A stretch of DNA of 64,000 nt from Patescibacteria group bacterium. GTDB taxonomy: Bacteria > Patescibacteriota > Patescibacteriia > UBA10025 > JAHIVO01. The stretch covers positions 315,284-379,283 of the forward strand of contig JBAZKE010000001.1 in assembly GCA_041650915.1 (NCBI GenBank), read 5' to 3'. The position numbers and the translations under genes are program-made. Positions within the stretch are counted from its first letter, which is position 1; each line of letters starts with the position of its first letter. Below, piece after piece: positions 20,144 through 41,641 of the stretch. The notes beneath the pieces were generated by a model. It saw only the letters and a list, made by a program, of their open reading frames with translations. It had not been told where the DNA came from and did no database searches.

Positions 20144-20349
20144 TCTCGCGCACCTCCTGTATAATTATGCATTCCAATGTACAAAATATAACCTTTGAGT
20201 GTACACCGCTTTGGGAATTTTGTCAATACCCGGCATTTCATATATTTTTAATCCGCTGAATTTTAAATATCCAAATCCACGTTTTGATATTTTTAAGGAT
20301 TGTTAGTATAGTTAAAATTGTTTAATACATTAGCATTAATAAACAATCT

Positions 20350-20562
20350 ATGCCAAATGCCACACTCGCCGACCGCATCAAAGGCGGCGTTGTTTTTGAG
20401 GAAAAATTCATTGAAGTCCTGGCGGCTGATATCGCCAATACGGAGGAGTTTACCGGCCTTGACCAGGCCAAGAAAGGCCAGATCCTCCCTTTGCTGCAGG
20501 TCATGCGGGATGATTCTATCCGCCACCGGAAGATATTAGAAAAAATCGCTGAAAAATACTAA
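20350..20562 (+). CDS. Small helical-hairpin protein with a ferritin-like E...DDxxH pattern (half-ferritin-like), first of a coupled pair
   Basis: 70 aa with FEEKFIEVL ... MRDDSIRHRKILEKI. Its stop lies 1 nt from the next ATG. Confidence 0.4.
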   Translation: MPNATLADRIKGGVVFEEKFIEVLAADIANTEEFTGLDQAKKGQILPLLQVMRDDSIRHRKILEKIAEKY

Positions 20563-20563
20563 T

Positions 20564-20761
20564 ATGAACAATTCCATTGATTCCCTAATCCGCCAGATCG
20601 AGGAGCTGAAATCCATGGAGGATGCGGCGTACCATCTCTACGGCACGATCCTGCCTGACATTTCCGATCCCCAGGACCGGGCCGCTGTTCAGCGGGTCCA
20701 GATCGAGGAAGAGAAGCATTCCAAAATGGCCGCGCGCATACTCACCATTTTGCGGTCATAA
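20564..20761 (+). CDS. Small helical-hairpin protein with a ferritin-like E...EExxH pattern, second of the pair
   Basis: 65 aa with SMEDAAYHLYG ... VQIEEEKHSKMAARIL. Confidence 0.4.
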   Translation: MNNSIDSLIRQIEELKSMEDAAYHLYGTILPDISDPQDRAAVQRVQIEEEKHSKMAARILTILRS

Positions 20762-20850: not shown

Positions 20851-21330
20851 ATGCGTAAAGCCATTTTCTACTTCTCCAAATGGGGCGCCACCAAACAGTA
20901 CGCCGACTGGATCGCCGAAGCGGTCCCCGGCACTGACGTCATTGACGCGATCAACGGTAAACCCGATCCGTCCCCGTACGGCGCGATAATTATTGCCACC
21001 CGGGCGTATATGGGCCGTATCGCCGCAGCGTCGTACCTTGCGCGTAACAGGGAAACGCTGAAAAGCAAGAAGGTATACTTGCTGGTTGTCGGCATGTCGC
21101 CGCAAGATGCGGATGACAGCAAAATGCAATACAACAGTATTCCCGTGGAGATCCGCAATGCACTCCAGGGATATGCCAAAGTTCCGGGCGCCATTGATCT
21201 GGACAAGCTCGGCTTCATCGTAAAGAAGATGTTCAAGATGTTTTCAAAAGGCGCGCCTAAGAGCGAAAATCAGGCGGCAAAGGAGCACATCGCGCCGGTG
21301 ATTGAGTGGCTGAAAAAAATTATAAATTAA
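20851..21330 (+). CDS. Flavodoxin-family protein
   Basis: N-terminal MRKAIFYFSKWGATKQYADWIAE (flavodoxin-like FMN loop) and a short alpha/beta fold (YLLVVGMSPQD). 159 aa. Confidence 0.5.
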   Translation: MRKAIFYFSKWGATKQYADWIAEAVPGTDVIDAINGKPDPSPYGAIIIATRAYMGRIAAASYLARNRETLKSKKVYLLVVGMSPQDADDSKMQYNSIPVEIRNALQGYAKVPGAIDLDKLGFIVKKMFKMFSKGAPKSENQAAKEHIAPVIEWLKKIIN

Positions 21331-21340
21331 CTCTATTACT

Positions 21341-21517
21341 ATGAAGAGATTTGAATACAAAATTGAACCTGGCAGCAGTAGAGGTCATGATGATACTCCA
21401 TTCTTAAATACTAATGGCAAGGAGGGCTGGGAGTTAGTTTCGGTATCAATAGAAAAAGGTGAGGGGTTAGGCGCAAAACGAAGAATGTATTTTTTTAAGC
21501 GGCAAATTGAAGAGTAA
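21341..21517 (+). CDS. DUF4177-family small protein (58 aa; below the ORF-track cutoff)
   Basis: Hand translation gives MKRFEYKIEP...NTNGKEGWELVSVSIEKGEGLGAKRRMYFFKRQIEE, matching the DUF4177 pattern (EYK...GxEGWELV...FKR). First gene of the low-GC island. Confidence 0.55.
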   Translation: MKRFEYKIEPGSSRGHDDTPFLNTNGKEGWELVSVSIEKGEGLGAKRRMYFFKRQIEE

Positions 21518-21628
21518 ATATAAGGTAAAATCTGACATCCAGCCGATTGTGGATTTTATAAGGGGGAAGGGGGATTAGTGGGGTGTAAATCGGCATTGAT
21601 TTTCTTAGAAAAAGGGGGTATAATTAAC

Positions 21629-21657
21629 TTGACATTGCCTAAAAAACAGAGTAACTT
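21629..21657 (+). promoter_or_regulatory. Putative promoter for the Panacea-domain gene
   Basis: TTGACA (21629-21634), 17-nt spacer, TAACTT. A TATAAT also lies at 21619-21624. Confidence 0.3.
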
Positions 21658-21677
21658 CAGCTGTTAATGTACCAGGT

Positions 21678-22277
21678 ATGTGGATAAAAGTAGGCAATTA
21701 TAAAAAAGAAGACATCCAAAAGCTTAAAGAGCTTTTAGTTTTTATTGTTGAAAAATACGAAGCTGATATATTAACCGAAACAAAGCTTTGGAAATTAGCA
21801 TATTTTTGTGAATCAAATTTTTATTTTAAAAATCATCGCACGATTACAGGAATTAATTATTATAAAAATAAATTTGGACCAACCCCTGATTATAAAGTGA
21901 TAAGCAGTATTATGGAGGAAATTGATGGTACGTATATTCAACGAAAAGAAGCGGCAAGACTAGGGGGTGGTAGGATGATTCTTTATTCAAAACTTAGTGA
22001 TTACCCGATAAAAAAATTATCAGGCGAAGAGCAAAGGGAGATTCTCGATACATGTGCAAAGTACTCGAAATTAAATACAAATGAAATCATGATACTCGCT
22101 CACAAGGATCCCCCTTATCTGGGCGCAGATGATGATGAAAAGATAAACTTTGATTTTGTTTTACATCGTGATGATTTAATTGATAACGAAGAATGCGAGA
22201 TTAATACGGATTCTGAAATTTTAGTTTCCGGAGAGGCCGCAAAGAAGCTCCTTGATTATGCAAAGTCAAAAGTATAA
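21678..22277 (+). CDS. Panacea (DUF4065, SocA-like) domain protein, a putative type II antitoxin (PanA-like)
   Basis: TKLWKLAYFCE...NKFGPTPDYKV...LSGEEQREIL...AHKDPPYL fits the Panacea core (KLQKLLYF...GP...SHxExPW). Low-GC gene overlapping the next ORF by 26 nt. Confidence 0.6.
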   Translation: MWIKVGNYKKEDIQKLKELLVFIVEKYEADILTETKLWKLAYFCESNFYFKNHRTITGINYYKNKFGPTPDYKVISSIMEEIDGTYIQRKEAARLGGGRMILYSKLSDYPIKKLSGEEQREILDTCAKYSKLNTNEIMILAHKDPPYLGADDDEKINFDFVLHRDDLIDNEECEINTDSEILVSGEAAKKLLDYAKSKV

Positions 22278-22686
22278 TGTTGCTGGAAACCAATATATAA
22301 AACGTGACTTAAAGCGTTTAAAAAAATTCAAATCACTTGAGAAGGACATTCAAGATAAGATAAAAATAATTATTGGAGGACTGCAGGATCATCAGGCTAG
22401 TTTTAGTAGTTTTCCATTTTCAGTTTTCATCACTAAAGCAAGCTTAAACGGAAAAGAGATCTGGTTCTATAAAGCCAGAATTGGCATTACTTCATGTCGT
22501 CTATCAGCCAGTAATGGTTGTCGTTTAATATTTGGTTATATTCCGGCGGATTATATATTTGTTCCGATATTGGTATATTCTGCTTCAGACGAAGGGACTG
22601 CTTACAATATTAACAAAAAGCAAATACCATTGAAGCATGAAGGATTAAAAAAAATCATTACTGAGAAATTACAATCGGAGTTTTGA
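22252..22686 (+). CDS. Candidate toxin partner of the Panacea antitoxin; unknown family with a weak RelE/ParE-fold-like pattern
   Basis: 144 aa. Overlaps the antitoxin gene in the canonical TA arrangement. ...IQDKIKIIIGGLQDH...EIWFYKARIGITSCRLSASNGCRLIFGYIP..YIFVPILVY resembles RelE/ParE strand topology. Confidence 0.4.
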   Translation: MIMQSQKYNVAGNQYIKRDLKRLKKFKSLEKDIQDKIKIIIGGLQDHQASFSSFPFSVFITKASLNGKEIWFYKARIGITSCRLSASNGCRLIFGYIPADYIFVPILVYSASDEGTAYNINKKQIPLKHEGLKKIITEKLQSEF

Positions 22687-22772
22687 TCCCCCCACCCCCG
22701 ACTGCGCATCCGTCTGATTGACAGAGGGTACATTCAGGATTAGATTATAGATACAAATCTTCCCCATAACCA

Positions 22773-23090
22773 ATGGGGATTTTATGTATGTATTACGTCT
22801 ACATTTTAGCGACTAAGTACAACAAGATGCTGTACGTCGGCGTTACCGGCAACCTAGAAGGCAGGGTGCGCCAACACAAGCGTAAGGAAGTGCCTGGCTT
22901 CACTCAAAAGTACAACATAACGAAGCTTGTTTACTATGAGGAGTACCAGTATGTACTTGACGCGATTTACCGGGAAAAGCAGATTAAGGGGTGGCTGCGG
23001 AAGAAAAAAGATATGTTGATTACGAATTTCAATCCTGGATGGAATGATCTGAGTAAGGGATGGTATAACGATTTTCCTTTGTCATCCTGA
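22773..23090 (+). CDS. Small GIY-YIG nuclease-family protein (copy 1)
   Basis: MYYVYILATKYNKMLYVGVTGNLEGRVRQHK... has the GIY...YIG and R..H motifs. About 70% identical to the copy at 39989. Confidence 0.85.
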   Translation: MGILCMYYVYILATKYNKMLYVGVTGNLEGRVRQHKRKEVPGFTQKYNITKLVYYEEYQYVLDAIYREKQIKGWLRKKKDMLITNFNPGWNDLSKGWYNDFPLSS

Positions 23091-23205
23091 GTCTATTTGT
23101 TTCTTGTCATCCTGAGCGTAAGCGAAGGATATAATCATATCCTTCGGTCGTATGACTCCCTCAGGATGACAAGGGTAGGTAAAACCCGGGATGACAAACG
23201 AGGGG
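23079..23205. repeat. GIY-YIG-associated hairpin/repeat cluster (GTCATCCTGAG motif in 3 copies)
   Basis: ttgtcatcctgag at 23079 and 23103, with the inverse ctcaggatgacaag at 23160. Nested inner hairpin cgaaggatat/atatccttcg. cgggatgacaaacg is the inverse of cgtttgtcatcccg, which is seen at the second GIY-YIG copy. Confidence 0.75.
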
Positions 23206-36905: not shown

Positions 36906-39900
36906 ATGAGCACGTTCGATGCGCTGAATGAAGCCCAGAAAAAAGCCGTCACCTTCGGCAGCGGTCCGCTGCTGATCGTCGCGGGCGCGGGTACGGGCAA
37001 GACAACCGTGATTACCCAGCGGATCGCGTGGCTTGTCATGGAAAAGAAAGTTCCGACTGACGGCATTCTCGCGCTCACGTTCACCGAGAAAGCGGCAAGC
37101 GAGATGGAAGAGCGCGTTGACGTGCTGCTGCCGTACGGGTACGTTGATTTGTGGATTTTAACGTTCCATTCGTTTTGCGAGCGGATATTAAAAGATAATG
37201 CCCTGGAAATCGGCTTGCCGCCCGATTTCAAGCTTTTGAACGAAACTGACCAGGTCATGCTGGTCCGCCAGAACCTCGACGCATTCAACCTCGACTACTA
37301 CCGCCCTCTGGGCAATCCGACGAAATTCGTACAAGCCCTCGTCAAGCACTTTTCCCGGGCAAAGGATGAGAACGTGATGCCGGAAGAGTACGTCGAGTAC
37401 GCGGAAAACCTCAAGCTTGACCGGGGCGACGTCGACTATGCGAAAAAGCGGGGCGCTGGGGATGAGGAGTTTACCGAAGAACAGCGCATTCGGGAGGTGG
37501 CGAACGCGTACCACGTGTACGAGCAGCTGCTACTCGATAATTCGGCGCTCGATTTCGGCGACCTCATCCTGTACGCCATCAAGCTTTTCAGGACACGGCC
37601 GCGGGTGCTCGACCGGTACCGCAAGCAGTTCCGCTATGTGCTCGTCGATGAATTCCAGGATACGAATTACGCCCAGTACGAGCTCGTGAAGCTTCTCGCG
37701 GGGGACAGGCAGAATGTCACCGTCGTCGGCGATGACGACCAATCGATCTATAAGTTCCGCGGCGCAGCGATCAGCAATATCCTCGAGTTCAAGAAGGATT
37801 TCCCGAATTCCGCTGAGGTGGTCCTGGCCGAGAACTACCGCACGGTCCAGAATATCCTCGACGTATCATATGCCTTCATCAAGCAGAACGACCCGAACCG
37901 CCTGGAGTACCAGCTGTCGCAGGGCACGGTTGACCCGAAAGGCGCACCGCTCAAGCACAAGGTGAGCAAGAAGCTCCGGTCGGCGAGGGAGGGAGACGGC
38001 CCCCTCAGCCACCTCGCATTCAGGTCGCACCTCGAGGAGGCGTCGGGCGTCGCCAAGAAGATAGTCGAGATCAAAAAAAAGAACAAGAAGCTGCAGTGGG
38101 GGGATTTCGCGATCCTTGTCAGGGCGAATGCCCACGCGAACGAGTTCATCGCCGCGCTGTCGCGGCTCGAGATCCCGTACCAGTACCTTGCGTCCCGGGG
38201 GCTCTACGCGCAGCCGGAAGTCATGGACGTCATCGCGTACCTCAAGCTGCTCGATAACTACCACGAGAGCCCGGCGCTGTGGCGCGTTTTGAGTTTCGCG
38301 CACTGGGACCTGCCGATCGAGGATCTCATGGCCGTGTCGGCGTATGCGCGCCGCAAGAGCTTGTCGCTCTACGAGGCGCTCCGCACCGCGCGCGCCATCC
38401 GGGGGATCGGCGCCACGTTCGTCTCGAAAACCGAAAAAATTTTATCGATAGTCGAGGCGCACACCCAGCTCGCCAAAACCAAGCCAGTGCTGCCGGTCGC
38501 GCTGCAGTTCATGAAGGATTCCGGGTACCTCAAGGCGATGACGTCAAAAGACTCGCCGGAAAATCTCGAGAAGATCGTGCACCTGAACCAATTTTTCCGC
38601 ACGATCGAAACGTTCGAGACGGCGAATAATGACGGCAGTGTAAAAAATTTCCTGTACGAGTTTTCCCAGATCCAGGAAGCAGGCGATGAGGGCTCGATGA
38701 ACAAGCCATGGGAGGAGGGGCCGGATGCGGTCAGGATCATGACCATCCACGGGGCGAAGGGGCTTGAGTTTCCGTACGTGTTTCTCGTTTCGCTCGTCGA
38801 CAAGCGTTTTCCGACCGTCGAACGCAAGGAGCAGATCGAACTCCCCGATGCGCTCGTCAAGGAGATCATTCCCGAGGGGGACGTCCACCTGCAGGAGGAA
38901 CGCCGCCTGTTCTACGTCGGGATGACGCGGGCGCGCGACGGACTGTTCCTCACCTCCGCGGAAGATTACGGTGGCACGCGCAGGAAGAAGCCGTCCCGGT
39001 TTTTAGTCGAGCTCGGATTCGTGGAGCGGGCCGGTGCCGCGGAGAAGGCCGATCCTACAGAGCGGCTCATGCCGCCGGAACCCGCAACGCAGCAGGAGAT
39101 CAGGGACCTCTCATTCCTCCAGAAAGCAATACCGGCGCAAGCGAGCTTTACGCAGCTCAGGGCGTTCCAGACCTGCCCCAAGCAGTATAAGTACGCGCAC
39201 ATTCTGCGGCTGCCGGTCGAGGGGCGGCATGCGTTCAGCTTCGGCAAGTCGATCCACGGAGCCCTTTTCCGGTTTTTCACGCTGGTCAGGCAAGGCGGAG
39301 GAGCGAGCCAGTCCGATCTGTTCGGCGCCAAGAAGAAAAAGCAGTCCGTGCCGGCCGCTGACGAGCTCCTCGCATTGTATGAAGCTGAATGGGTTGATGA
39401 CTGGTATCTTTCCAAAGAGCACGCTGAGGAGTACCGCGCAAAGGGCGCGAAGCTGCTCCGTGAGTTTTATAATTCGCACAAAGGCACATTTCCCGTGCCG
39501 CTGCATCTCGAGCAGCCGTTCCACCTCAAACTCGGGGAGTATACGTTCAAGGGCGTGATTGACCGTATTGATCCGGCAGGGGAAAAGAATCAAGCTGAAA
39601 TAATCGACTATAAGACAGGCCAGCTCCCGAAAGGCGGCAAGCTGTCCCCGGACGACAAGCAGCAGCTGCAGATTTACGACCTCGCGGTGCGCGAAGTGCT
39701 CGGACTCGAGCCGACGCTGTTGAGCTACTACTATTTGGACGCGAATAAGAAGCTGTCGTTTGAATCCGATGAAAAGGCGTTGCGGGACATCAAAGCGCAG
39801 CTGACCAGCCAGATTCAGAGCATTCGTGCGAGCGAATTCAAGGCAACGCCGGGATTTTGGTGTAATAGTTGTGACTTTCGTGAGATTTGCGAGGACAGAT

Positions 39901-39911
39901 GGCGGGGGTAG
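36906..39911 (+). CDS. UvrD/PcrA/AddA-like superfamily-1 helicase fused to a C-terminal Cas4/RecB-type PD-(D/E)XK nuclease with an Fe-S Cys cluster
   Basis: GAGTGKTTV Walker A, DEFQDTN, VGDDDQSIYKFRGA, motif VI GMTRARDGLFLT. The C-terminal nuclease has QTCPKQYKY...IIDYKTGQ...CNSCDFREIC. Confidence 0.8.
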   Translation: MSTFDALNEAQKKAVTFGSGPLLIVAGAGTGKTTVITQRIAWLVMEKKVPTDGILALTFTEKAASEMEERVDVLLPYGYVDLWILTFHSFCERILKDNALEIGLPPDFKLLNETDQVMLVRQNLDAFNLDYYRPLGNPTKFVQALVKHFSRAKDENVMPEEYVEYAENLKLDRGDVDYAKKRGAGDEEFTEEQRIREVANAYHVYEQLLLDNSALDFGDLILYAIKLFRTRPRVLDRYRKQFRYVLVDEFQDTNYAQYELVKLLAGDRQNVTVVGDDDQSIYKFRGAAISNILEFKKDFPNSAEVVLAENYRTVQNILDVSYAFIKQNDPNRLEYQLSQGTVDPKGAPLKHKVSKKLRSAREGDGPLSHLAFRSHLEEASGVAKKIVEIKKKNKKLQWGDFAILVRANAHANEFIAALSRLEIPYQYLASRGLYAQPEVMDVIAYLKLLDNYHESPALWRVLSFAHWDLPIEDLMAVSAYARRKSLSLYEALRTARAIRGIGATFVSKTEKILSIVEAHTQLAKTKPVLPVALQFMKDSGYLKAMTSKDSPENLEKIVHLNQFFRTIETFETANNDGSVKNFLYEFSQIQEAGDEGSMNKPWEEGPDAVRIMTIHGAKGLEFPYVFLVSLVDKRFPTVERKEQIELPDALVKEIIPEGDVHLQEERRLFYVGMTRARDGLFLTSAEDYGGTRRKKPSRFLVELGFVERAGAAEKADPTERLMPPEPATQQEIRDLSFLQKAIPAQASFTQLRAFQTCPKQYKYAHILRLPVEGRHAFSFGKSIHGALFRFFTLVRQGGGASQSDLFGAKKKKQSVPAADELLALYEAEWVDDWYLSKEHAEEYRAKGAKLLREFYNSHKGTFPVPLHLEQPFHLKLGEYTFKGVIDRIDPAGEKNQAEIIDYKTGQLPKGGKLSPDDKQQLQIYDLAVREVLGLEPTLLSYYYLDANKKLSFESDEKALRDIKAQLTSQIQSIRASEFKATPGFWCNSCDFREICEDRWRG

Positions 39912-39988
39912 TTTGCGATACAAGTTATTATAGGATAGAATAGGGATAGAAATGTAATAACCTTCCCCAAATAACTTTTGGGGATTTT

Positions 39989-40270
39989 ATGTACTGCGTC
40001 TATATCATTACGAATAAACGGAAGAATGTGCTTTACACCGGCGTGACGAGCAATATCGTTGGCCGCGTTCGCCAGCACAAGAATAAGGTGCTTCCCGGTT
40101 TTACCAGCAAATACCGCGTACAGCACCTCGTCTACTATGAGGAGTACCAATACGTGTATGATGCCATCGCACGGGAGAAACAGATCAAGGGCTGGCGTCG
40201 TTCGAAAAAGGAGACATTGATCAGGCAATTGAATCCGTCATGGAGTGATTTGAGTGTTGGCTGGCACTAA
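39989..40270 (+). CDS. Small GIY-YIG nuclease-family protein (copy 2)
   Basis: MYCVYIITNKRKNVLYTGVTSNIVGRVRQHK... Same 5' flank (CCCCAAATAACTTTTGGGGATTTTATG) as copy 1. Confidence 0.85.
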   Translation: MYCVYIITNKRKNVLYTGVTSNIVGRVRQHKNKVLPGFTSKYRVQHLVYYEEYQYVYDAIAREKQIKGWRRSKKETLIRQLNPSWSDLSVGWH

Positions 40271-40271
40271 T

Positions 40272-40390
40272 GCTTGTCATCGCAAGCCCCCCACGTTTGT
40301 CATCCCGACCCGCCAATGGGCGGGGAGGGATCTCGGTAAAGAACACTATGCCAGTAACAGAGATGCTTCGACTTCGCTCAGCATGACAAG
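40272..40390. repeat. GIY-YIG-associated hairpin/repeat cluster (copy 2)
   Basis: cttgtcat ... atgacaag outer arms. cgtttgtcatcccg motif. Inner cccgcc/ggcggg hairpin. Confidence 0.65.
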
Positions 40391-40466
40391 GGTTGTTTTT
40401 GTTGCTTGCGTAATTGTTGGTGGGGGGTAGAATGAGGGTGCACATTAAATTTTATATTTACGAAAT

Positions 40467-40940
40467 ATGAAAATTCAAAAAAGTACAAGGCACTCAAAAA
40501 TAACTGGAAATTTTTGTGAAAGTGTCATTTTATATTGGTTATCAAAATATGGATTTGAGTGCGCAAACGTAGATCATACGGGCATTGATATTATTGCTCG
40601 TAATCCTCATACAAAGGAGGTTATGGGAATTTCAGTAAAAGGCAGAAGTAGAAATGAAGGAAAAGAAAAGACTTATGTCAGCATCCCAAATGATAATTTT
40701 GATAAAATTAGAAGGGCGTGTAAAGCGTTTAATTGTGTTCCATATTTTGCAATAGTTGTTGATGAAAAAGATAGAATATACTCATTCATTGTATCAATGG
40801 GGCATTTATTAAAATTATTTCCAGAAGGTAATCGCGTATGTGCGTGGAAAATGACAGAAAAACATATCGCACGATACAAGCAAGACTCCGAAATAATGTT
40901 TTTTGAATTTGATTATAAGACACTGAATTGGTGGGAATAA
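40467..40940 (+). CDS. Low-GC orphan protein with an Hjc/YraN-like PD-(D/E)XK restriction-endonuclease-fold N-terminal domain
   Basis: ESVILYWLSKYGFECANVDHTGIDIIARNPHTKEVMGISVKG follows the E...GxD(hhA)...hhhh(E/S)xK pattern of Holliday-junction-resolvase-like nucleases. The C-terminal 80 aa are unknown. Confidence 0.45.
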   Translation: MKIQKSTRHSKITGNFCESVILYWLSKYGFECANVDHTGIDIIARNPHTKEVMGISVKGRSRNEGKEKTYVSIPNDNFDKIRRACKAFNCVPYFAIVVDEKDRIYSFIVSMGHLLKLFPEGNRVCAWKMTEKHIARYKQDSEIMFFEFDYKTLNWWE

Positions 40941-40960
40941 ATTATTTTTACGATTGAAGT

Positions 40961-41641
40961 ATGCGAGAGCGTTTAACTATTATCGTTGCATTAACCTGCT
41001 GCGTGGTTTTATCTGGTTGTGCTATTCAGCAGACAAACGGTAATTCATCCACTAGCGTTAATACCAACTTCCCTGTCAACACCAACGCCACGCCAGTTGT
41101 AAATTCGAACACGAATACAGTGATCAATGCCACGCCAGTGGTAAAGGAGTTTATCTCACCGCTTGATAAGCCGGCGGAACGCATTACGAAAAAGCCGTTT
41201 GGCATTTACATCACGCCCACGGCGTCACCGGTTCAGCCGGAGAGGTTTTCTGGTTTTCACACCGGCGTGGATTTTGAAATTTTGGCAGGTGAGGAAGATA
41301 GTGACGTAGCAGTTACGGCAGGGTGCAGTGGTACGGTTCGAGATAAACAGCGGGTGAGTGGGTACGGCGGTGTGCTGGTGCAGGATTGCGTTTTAGCCGG
41401 CGAAAACGTAACTGTTTTGTACGGCCATTTGAATTTGGATAGCATAACCATTTCAGTGGGTGATACGCTGCATCAGGGGGATTTGATAGGCAATCTTGGC
41501 ACGGGGTATAGTACCCAGACGGATAATGAGCGCAAGCATTTGCATGTGTCGGTACACAAAGGAACGGGCGTAAATTACAAAGGATATGTGAGTTTAGAAT
41601 CAGCGCTTGAGGATTGGATCGACCCGCAGGAATATTTTTAA
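40961..41641 (+). CDS. M23-family (LytM-like) metallopeptidase lipoprotein
   Basis: Lipobox VLSGC. HTGVDF (HxxxD) and KHLHVSVH (HxH) zinc motifs. Confidence 0.75.
   Translation: MRERLTIIVALTCCVVLSGCAIQQTNGNSSTSVNTNFPVNTNATPVVNSNTNTVINATPVVKEFISPLDKPAERITKKPFGIYITPTASPVQPERFSGFHTGVDFEILAGEEDSDVAVTAGCSGTVRDKQRVSGYGGVLVQDCVLAGENVTVLYGHLNLDSITISVGDTLHQGDLIGNLGTGYSTQTDNERKHLHVSVHKGTGVNYKGYVSLESALEDWIDPQEYF

Follow-up and report, generated by a model that had tools for sequence, protein, structure and literature searches.

A stretch of 64,000 nt from the genome of a Patescibacteria group bacterium (GenBank assembly GCA_041650915.1, contig JBAZKE010000001.1, positions 315,284 to 379,283 of the forward strand; hereafter the window, with positions counted from its first letter) carries an AT-rich island with two small, overlapping genes, which very probably form a toxin-antitoxin module of the PanAT class, in which panA encodes a Panacea-domain antitoxin (PanA) and panT the toxin (PanT). 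The structure model leaves little doubt that the panT product would adopt the RelE/ParE fold. The reading preferred here as a whole, namely a horizontally acquired PanAT operon with an enlarged, RelE-fold toxin that cleaves messenger RNA (an mRNase) and a PanA that neutralises it directly via its C-terminal helix, is held with moderate confidence. The three features on which the argument turns are the following.

21331-22700: low-GC island (GC, the G+C fraction, 0.347), the GC minimum of the 64-kb window
21678-22277, + strand: panA, a 199-aa Panacea-domain antitoxin with a match to PF13274
22258-22686, + strand: panT, a 142-aa basic protein (isoelectric point, pI, 9.7) with a predicted RelE/ParE-superfamily fold, overlapping panA by 20 nt

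A conserved gene pair, probably antitoxin and toxin

The 199-aa protein matches the Pfam profile SocA_Panacea (PF13274) with 40.0 bits, above the cutoff of 25.7, over residues 37-146 and profile positions 1-111 of 113. This bears out the Panacea/DUF4065 identity given to it in a first-pass annotation of the same DNA, and the public record names the product 'SocA domain-containing antitoxin'. The domain is present in all 18 PanA relatives (18/18, 41-47% identity). A 'GPV' signature motif in beta2 is conserved among PanA (Kurata et al. 2022, PMC8832971); the present lineage has a variant of it, with G67-P68-T69 in the window, G67, T69 and P70 invariant, and P or A at position 68. In the structure model of PanA (predicted local distance difference test score, pLDDT, 83), an ordered globular core (residues about 5-160) is followed by a disordered, strongly acidic linker (166-182, pLDDT below 50, eight D/E versus one K/R) and a terminal helix (185-197). 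The helix carries a motif (S184, A187, L192, Y194) that the lineage conserves while the linker is variable, and the window PanA has a pI of 5.4. A PDB search with the PanA profile gave no sequence match, and the lineage is carried by 4 of 185,579 GTDB species representatives.

The start of panT is most likely the ATG at 22258 rather than the TTG at 22252, because its homologues begin with MS or MQ at the matching position and the product has 142 aa in the public record (P0001, 'hypothetical protein'); the overlap with panA is thus 20 nt. The first-pass annotation had placed an open reading frame (ORF) here correctly, but its figures of 144 aa and a 26-nt overlap give way to the likelier 142 aa and 20 nt. 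panT is a real gene: when 1.84 billion protein representatives were searched exhaustively with HMMER, it had 33 homologues at E <= 1e-3 and 20 at E <= 1e-10, 29-50% identical and aligned end to end. A profile search of a 5.8-billion-sequence set gave 29 clusters, all of them without a Pfam domain and without an informative name. A word-seeded search with the 142-aa protein returned only the protein itself, and the family surfaced only through exhaustive HMMER. It is uniformly basic (pI 8.4-10.0), and its named members are from Patescibacteria, plus one bin labelled Pacearchaeota. That one, P0074, labelled Candidatus Pacearchaeota (DPANN archaea), points either to mis-binning or to a transfer event between archaea and bacteria of ultra-small size.

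That the downstream ORF has no clear family, as had been remarked from the letters, agrees with the profile searches, which found no Pfam, NCBIfam or PADLOC match and none of meaning among PHROGs or PDB sequences. Phage and plasmid collections likewise gave no match. The curated Pfam and NCBIfam models of RelE, ParE, HigB, YoeB and YafQ matched 0/26 family members at E values up to 1.

The pairing of the two genes is strict. In neighbourhoods gathered from both PanA relatives and toxin relatives, the short-form toxin gene is directly preceded by a PanA gene of this one lineage in 10/10 distinct loci (the window, L001/L015, L003, L004/5, L006/7, L008/9/L017, L010, L011, L016 from Gribaldobacteria, and L018), with an overlap of 8-20 nt or a gap of 11-14 nt. 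The downstream ORF is thus a conserved partner gene, and the earlier proposal of a toxin candidate is supported. PanA and PanT identities drop in parallel across loci (46/45, 42/48, 33/35 and 31/36%), and the pair is therefore inherited as a unit. Small co-directional overlapping genes, inheritance as a unit, patchy distribution and foreign composition, all of them traits of type II modules, are found together here. More distant PanAs (24-34% identity; Myxococcaceae, Duganella) do not have this partner.

Predicted fold and candidate active site of PanT

The AlphaFold2 model of PanT (22-sequence alignment) reaches a pLDDT of 90.4 and a predicted template modelling score (pTM) of 0.85, a high-confidence counterpart to the faint RelE/ParE-like pattern that the first-pass annotation had noticed. 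It has the features of the RelE/ParE fold, in which a helical hairpin at the N terminus packs on an antiparallel sheet, with helices at 11-20 and 27-44 and strands at 55-63, 66-75, 88-95 and 100-108; the C-terminal part consists of a hairpin (115-124) and a helix (127-140). The structural matches to the model rank as follows.

P. horikoshii RelE (84/88 residues, 2.7 Å): Z 9.0
T. thermophilus RelE: Z 8.6
M. tuberculosis RelE1: Z 8.0
YafQ and HigB: Z 7.9
E. coli RelE: Z 7.7
HigB-2: Z 7.6
ParE proteins: Z 7.4-6.6

The top Foldseek matches are HigB2, RelE and aRelE. When the hidden Markov model (HMM) of the panT family was compared with the PDB, all five matches below E 0.1 were V. cholerae HigB-2 (E 0.07), and this alignment runs free of gaps through the beta2-loop-beta3-beta4 core ('R-V-x-I-T-x-P-x-x-S-P-S-x-G-x-R-L-I-Y...F-x-P-I-L-V-Y'). 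In E. coli RelE, residues K52, K54, R61, R81 and Y87 are the catalytic and RNA-binding ones. Alignment of PanT with E. coli RelE by hhalign (probability 20.6%, E 1.1e-3) places K72 on K52, R74 on K54, R89 on R61 and Y116 on Y87, the RelE query having matched PDB 4v7k over all 95 residues. Among the 26 aligned family members, K72 and R89 are conserved in 26/26, R74 in 25/26 and E112 in 24/26, and G87 is invariant. Within the RelE/ParE superfamily, PanT is closest to the RelE/HigB-2 branch.

The toxin domain also occurs in N-terminally extended versions of 204-241 aa (P0036, P0038, P0041) that have no PanA nearby, at the following loci.

L012:2501-3130: extended toxin-domain version without PanA
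L013:2501-3115: extended toxin-domain version without PanA
L014:2501-3226: extended toxin-domain version without PanA

The possibility that these extensions are fused copies of the PanA tail was ruled out (hhalign probability 0.1%). Two of the extended-version loci lie on circular contigs of ~680 kb with a GC of 0.49, the L012 copy adjoins an RloB and AAA_21 pair, and P0038 has Arg in place of the invariant Lys. Upstream of the PanA-less variant, a called 343-aa gene (L012:1367-2398) has two in-frame stops near its 3′ end under code 11, which may be a gene-calling artefact or the mark of a recoded genome.

Composition and origin of the island

The 1370-nt stretch 21331-22700 has a GC of 0.347, against a mean of 0.538 (standard deviation 0.042) for all 1370-nt windows of the 64 kb, of which the lowest overall (0.338) starts at 21301. 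In a 300-nt profile, GC falls from 0.54-0.57 to 0.28-0.38 on entering the island, and at third codon positions (GC3) it is 0.27 in panA and panT versus 0.67 and 0.64 in two genes on the flanks, those of the flavodoxin and of a 310-aa protein. Intermediate values (0.43-0.48) continue across a GIY-YIG gene and its repeats to ~23450. The first-pass annotation had described a drop from about 60% to 35-40% after the flavodoxin stop; the drop itself is real, while the starting figure is slightly high, since the neighbours lie at 0.52-0.57. The island is compositionally foreign DNA, as had been supposed.

The cassettes of the relatives are AT-rich throughout (GC 0.26-0.37), and their hosts are mostly AT-rich themselves. 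The L010 locus, with a flank GC of 0.525 and adjoining ribosomal protein genes, has the same composition contrast as the window, and the AT-rich cassette occurs in hosts spanning 30-54% GC. A recent transfer out of a Patescibacteria donor of low GC would fit this composition. Searches for tRNA genes and Rfam families across the whole window were negative (integrases were not searched for), and with no tRNA there is no tRNA-linked integration site; a repeat search found no flanking direct repeats around the module. For an empty-site comparison, the flavodoxin protein encoded upstream was scanned against metagenomes; it gave no relative above 35% identity over more than 1/3 of the protein, higher scores being confined to short N-terminal segments. 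This left no close relative of the host and no syntenic empty site to compare, and it is from composition only that the module is taken to be horizontally acquired.

Upstream of panA there is a G-run, GGGGGAAGGGGG (21562-21573), and right after the panT stop a C-run, CCCCCCACCCCC (22688-22699); the two resemble an imperfect inverted repeat around the module. Considered as terminal inverted repeats, they are not among the 25 longest of 49 inverted repeats found with 6-nt seeds, and they are treated as a chance pair.

Proposed mechanism and alternative readings

For the module in the window we infer toxicity, RNase activity, the mode of neutralisation and the transcription signals. In the proposed scheme, panA would be translated first from a shared transcript, and the 20-nt overlap suggests translational coupling of the two genes. 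The PanT toxin would arrest growth by cleaving ribosome-bound mRNA through the K72/R74/R89 cluster, possibly with E112 and Y116; residue conservation and structural ranking together tip the balance slightly towards such an RNase mechanism. PanA would bind the toxin and neutralise it directly, the likeliest neutralising element being its conserved C-terminal amphipathic helix on the disordered acidic linker, and the globular Panacea core may act as a scaffold or sensor. PanA proteins are reported to neutralise either via the Panacea core or via appended terminal elements such as Phd-C (Ernits et al., PMC10440598). Here the architecture of PanA, together with the analogy to antitoxin tails that fold on RelE-type toxins, suggests neutralisation through the appended C-terminal element.

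Several observations weigh against this account. The Foldseek matches are weak (E 0.037 at best), as are the sequence links between PanT and RelE-type toxins (20.6% in hhalign, E 0.07 for the HMM against HigB-2), and the residue mapping depends on the hhalign alignment. Y116 is conserved in only 17/26 family members, and the position of RelE R81 is acidic in the panT family (D/E111-E112). The role given to the C-terminal helix of PanA is drawn by analogy, and an overall acidic character is not shared by the other PanAs of the lineage, whose pI values reach 9.4. Moreover, eight PanTs were non-toxic in E. coli (Kurata et al., PMC8832971), and ParE-type gyrase poisons have the same fold at marginally lower Z.

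ParE-like activity is the main alternative to the mRNase reading: the pair would still be PanAT, with a toxin that poisons gyrase or has some other non-RNase activity on a RelE/ParE fold. Such a toxin is improbable, since RelE, YafQ and HigB outrank every ParE structurally, the basic cluster K-x-R...G-x-R, invariant or nearly so, matches residues that serve catalysis and RNA binding in RelE, and the best sequence match is an mRNase, HigB-2. The eight non-toxic PanTs would fit a further idea, that the pair is inactive or domesticated, either as a conserved complex without growth inhibition or with PanA as a SocA-like proteolytic adaptor (type VI). SocA does act through ClpXP, but the tested PanAs were independent of both ClpXP and Lon (PMC8832971). 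Likewise, the PanA-less extended versions (P0036, P0038, P0041) indicate that the toxin domain can persist without this antitoxin, whereas in the short-form pairs the candidate active-site residues are strictly conserved at 29-50% identity and the tight operon is kept in all ten loci, so that inactivity appears very doubtful.

It is also conceivable, and compatible with the mRNase reading, that the pair serves mainly in abortive-infection phage defence, with the Panacea core sensing a phage cue and freeing the RelE-fold toxin. A sensory role of Panacea has been proposed (Ernits et al., PMC10440598), and some neighbourhoods point this way: an N6_N4 methylase, a DEAD/ResIII helicase and HEPN_AbiV at L006, SLFN_AlbA_2 and Peptidase_M78 at L003, RhuM beside the L001 module and a methylase beside the L004 module. 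However, the neighbours in the window, L008 and L010 are housekeeping genes (flavodoxin, G6PD/YjeF, ribosomal proteins), there is no known trigger, and the toxin has no match in phage or plasmid collections. As the main function of the pair, defence is thus unlikely on balance, and for the module in the window it is possible, not indicated. A more far-reaching version, which we consider a long shot, would have the toxin as a Patescibacteria-restricted RelE-fold offshoot with a target or mode unlike classical A-site cleavage, restrained by a Panacea sensor that responds to infection by a phage. The acidic pair at the R81 site and the added beta-hairpin and helix would then change the target or mode, for example by fitting the toxin to the reduced ribosomes that these bacteria have or to a different RNA substrate, and the toxin would be one of the earliest to be defined as acting in abortive infection in ultra-small, episymbiotic bacteria.

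Neighbouring genes and signals

The remaining features in and next to the island are listed below.

21341-21517, + strand: 58-aa DUF4177-like mini-gene, sub-threshold match to Pfam DUF4177
21596-21657, + strand: two promoter-like candidates upstream of panA, consensus matches only
22761-22787, + strand: terminator-like hairpin after the panT stop and ahead of the likely GIY-YIG start (7-bp stem with four G-C pairs, then a T-run)
22788-23090, + strand: small stand-alone GIY-YIG nuclease gene (PF01541, 57.8 bits; GC 0.43)

The 58-aa ORF is probably a short relative of DUF4177, because three sub-threshold matches agree: Pfam DUF4177 (PF13783) with 23.8 bits against a cutoff of 25, NCBIfam Sp36_fam with 30.2 bits against a cutoff of 50, and PHROG 13055 at E 6.7e-6. 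The first-pass annotation had set a DUF4177 mini-gene ahead of the pair within the island; the ORF is where it was placed and the family match falls just short of threshold, but membership in the module does not follow. As a third module component the ORF was rejected: it has no tblastn match in the 14 related loci (L001-L014), and it is thus a neighbour in the island and not part of the module. The promoter proposed earlier is present as a sequence, TTGACA (21629-21634) and TAACTT (21652-21657) separated by 17 nt, but its -10 element matches the consensus at 3/6 positions only and TTGATT-17-TATAAT at 21596-21624 is the candidate favoured by the scan. Across this region, promoter-like sites are not enriched over shuffled sequence (3 found versus 7.2 expected).

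The start of the GIY-YIG gene is probably M6 (22788), given its alignment with a paralogue. No GIY-YIG gene was found beside the modules of the relatives, and the gene is a neighbour that is not conserved with the module. The paralogue (39989-40270, + strand; 93 aa, PF01541 with 64 bits) is 65% identical to the copy downstream of panT and lies in a second low-GC spot (39600-41000, GC ~0.41), where it is followed by a 157-aa ORF (40467-40940, + strand) with no Pfam match; both GIY-YIG copies abut AT-rich DNA that looks foreign. Just downstream of the first copy (23075-23201), the 14-nt unit CTTGTCATCCTGAG occurs as a direct repeat starting at 23078 and 23103, with inverted copies at 23160-23175 and 23184-23201. 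After the second copy, a minus-strand ORF (40221-40445) encodes the peptide 'CHAERSRSI', which probably goes with similar GIY-YIG-linked repeats. Elsewhere in the window, two abutting small ORFs of 70 and 65 aa (20350-20761), which follow a GC dip to 0.36 (20150-20449), have no significant Pfam match.

Relation to known systems

Kurata et al. (2022, PMC8832971) counted 88 combinations of PanA with toxin domains, among them mRNA interferases and ParE. Within a portion of the text of Dataset S1 of the same study, the experimentally uncharacterised PanT clusters T14, T28 and T59 are given as matching HigB-2 (99.7%, HHpred), YoeB/ParE and RelE, T14 being the HigB-2-like one. As in the window, these clusters have a Panacea antitoxin upstream of a close or overlapping small HigB-2/RelE/YoeB/ParE-like toxin, in the order A|T, and the kind of system is therefore already known; the first-pass annotation's 'previously unclassified PanT-type toxin' is not supported in that form. 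Their sources are Methanobrevibacter, Cryosericum, Taylorella and Haloterrigena, whereas the present module is from Patescibacteria, and no Patescibacteria or Parcubacteria entry occurs in that portion of the dataset. Compared by the descriptions of the clusters only, the window toxin is ~50 residues longer than theirs and has no Pfam or NCBIfam RelE/ParE match.

The experimentally known relatives differ further. V. cholerae HigB-2 (PDB 5ja8, 5ja9, 8a0x), a ribosome-dependent mRNase according to its PDB entry and paper title, is matched at E 0.07 only, with ~11% identity; it has 110 aa and HigA-2 as its cognate antitoxin, whereas PanT has 142 aa (against ~90 aa for a usual RelE/ParE-superfamily toxin) and is partnered by PanA. 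Compared with E. coli and archaeal RelE (PDB 4fxh, 2kc8, 1wmi), R81 is not conserved, PanT has an 8-residue loop insertion, the extra beta-hairpin (115-124) and a 14-residue C-terminal helix, and the RelE antitoxin RelB is unrelated to PanA. On the antitoxin side, the C-terminal domain of DarG (M. tuberculosis DarTG, PDB 7yk3) is 10% identical to PanA, but here there is no macrodomain and the toxin is unrelated.

The module is thus an ordinary, formerly unannotated PanA:RelE-fold system in an unusual host, and represents neither a new toxin fold nor a new principle. What is new is a divergent, ~50% larger RelE/HigB-2-like subfamily, apparently confined to Patescibacteria, that curated sequence models miss. 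A fold and a testable mechanism can now be assigned to a family of ~30-60 proteins whose named members are all called 'hypothetical', and a toxin-antitoxin module mobile among Patescibacteria is added for a group whose accessory genes are poorly characterised. The list of PanA partners thereby gains an enlarged and divergent branch of RelE/HigB-2-like type, one that sequence models overlook.
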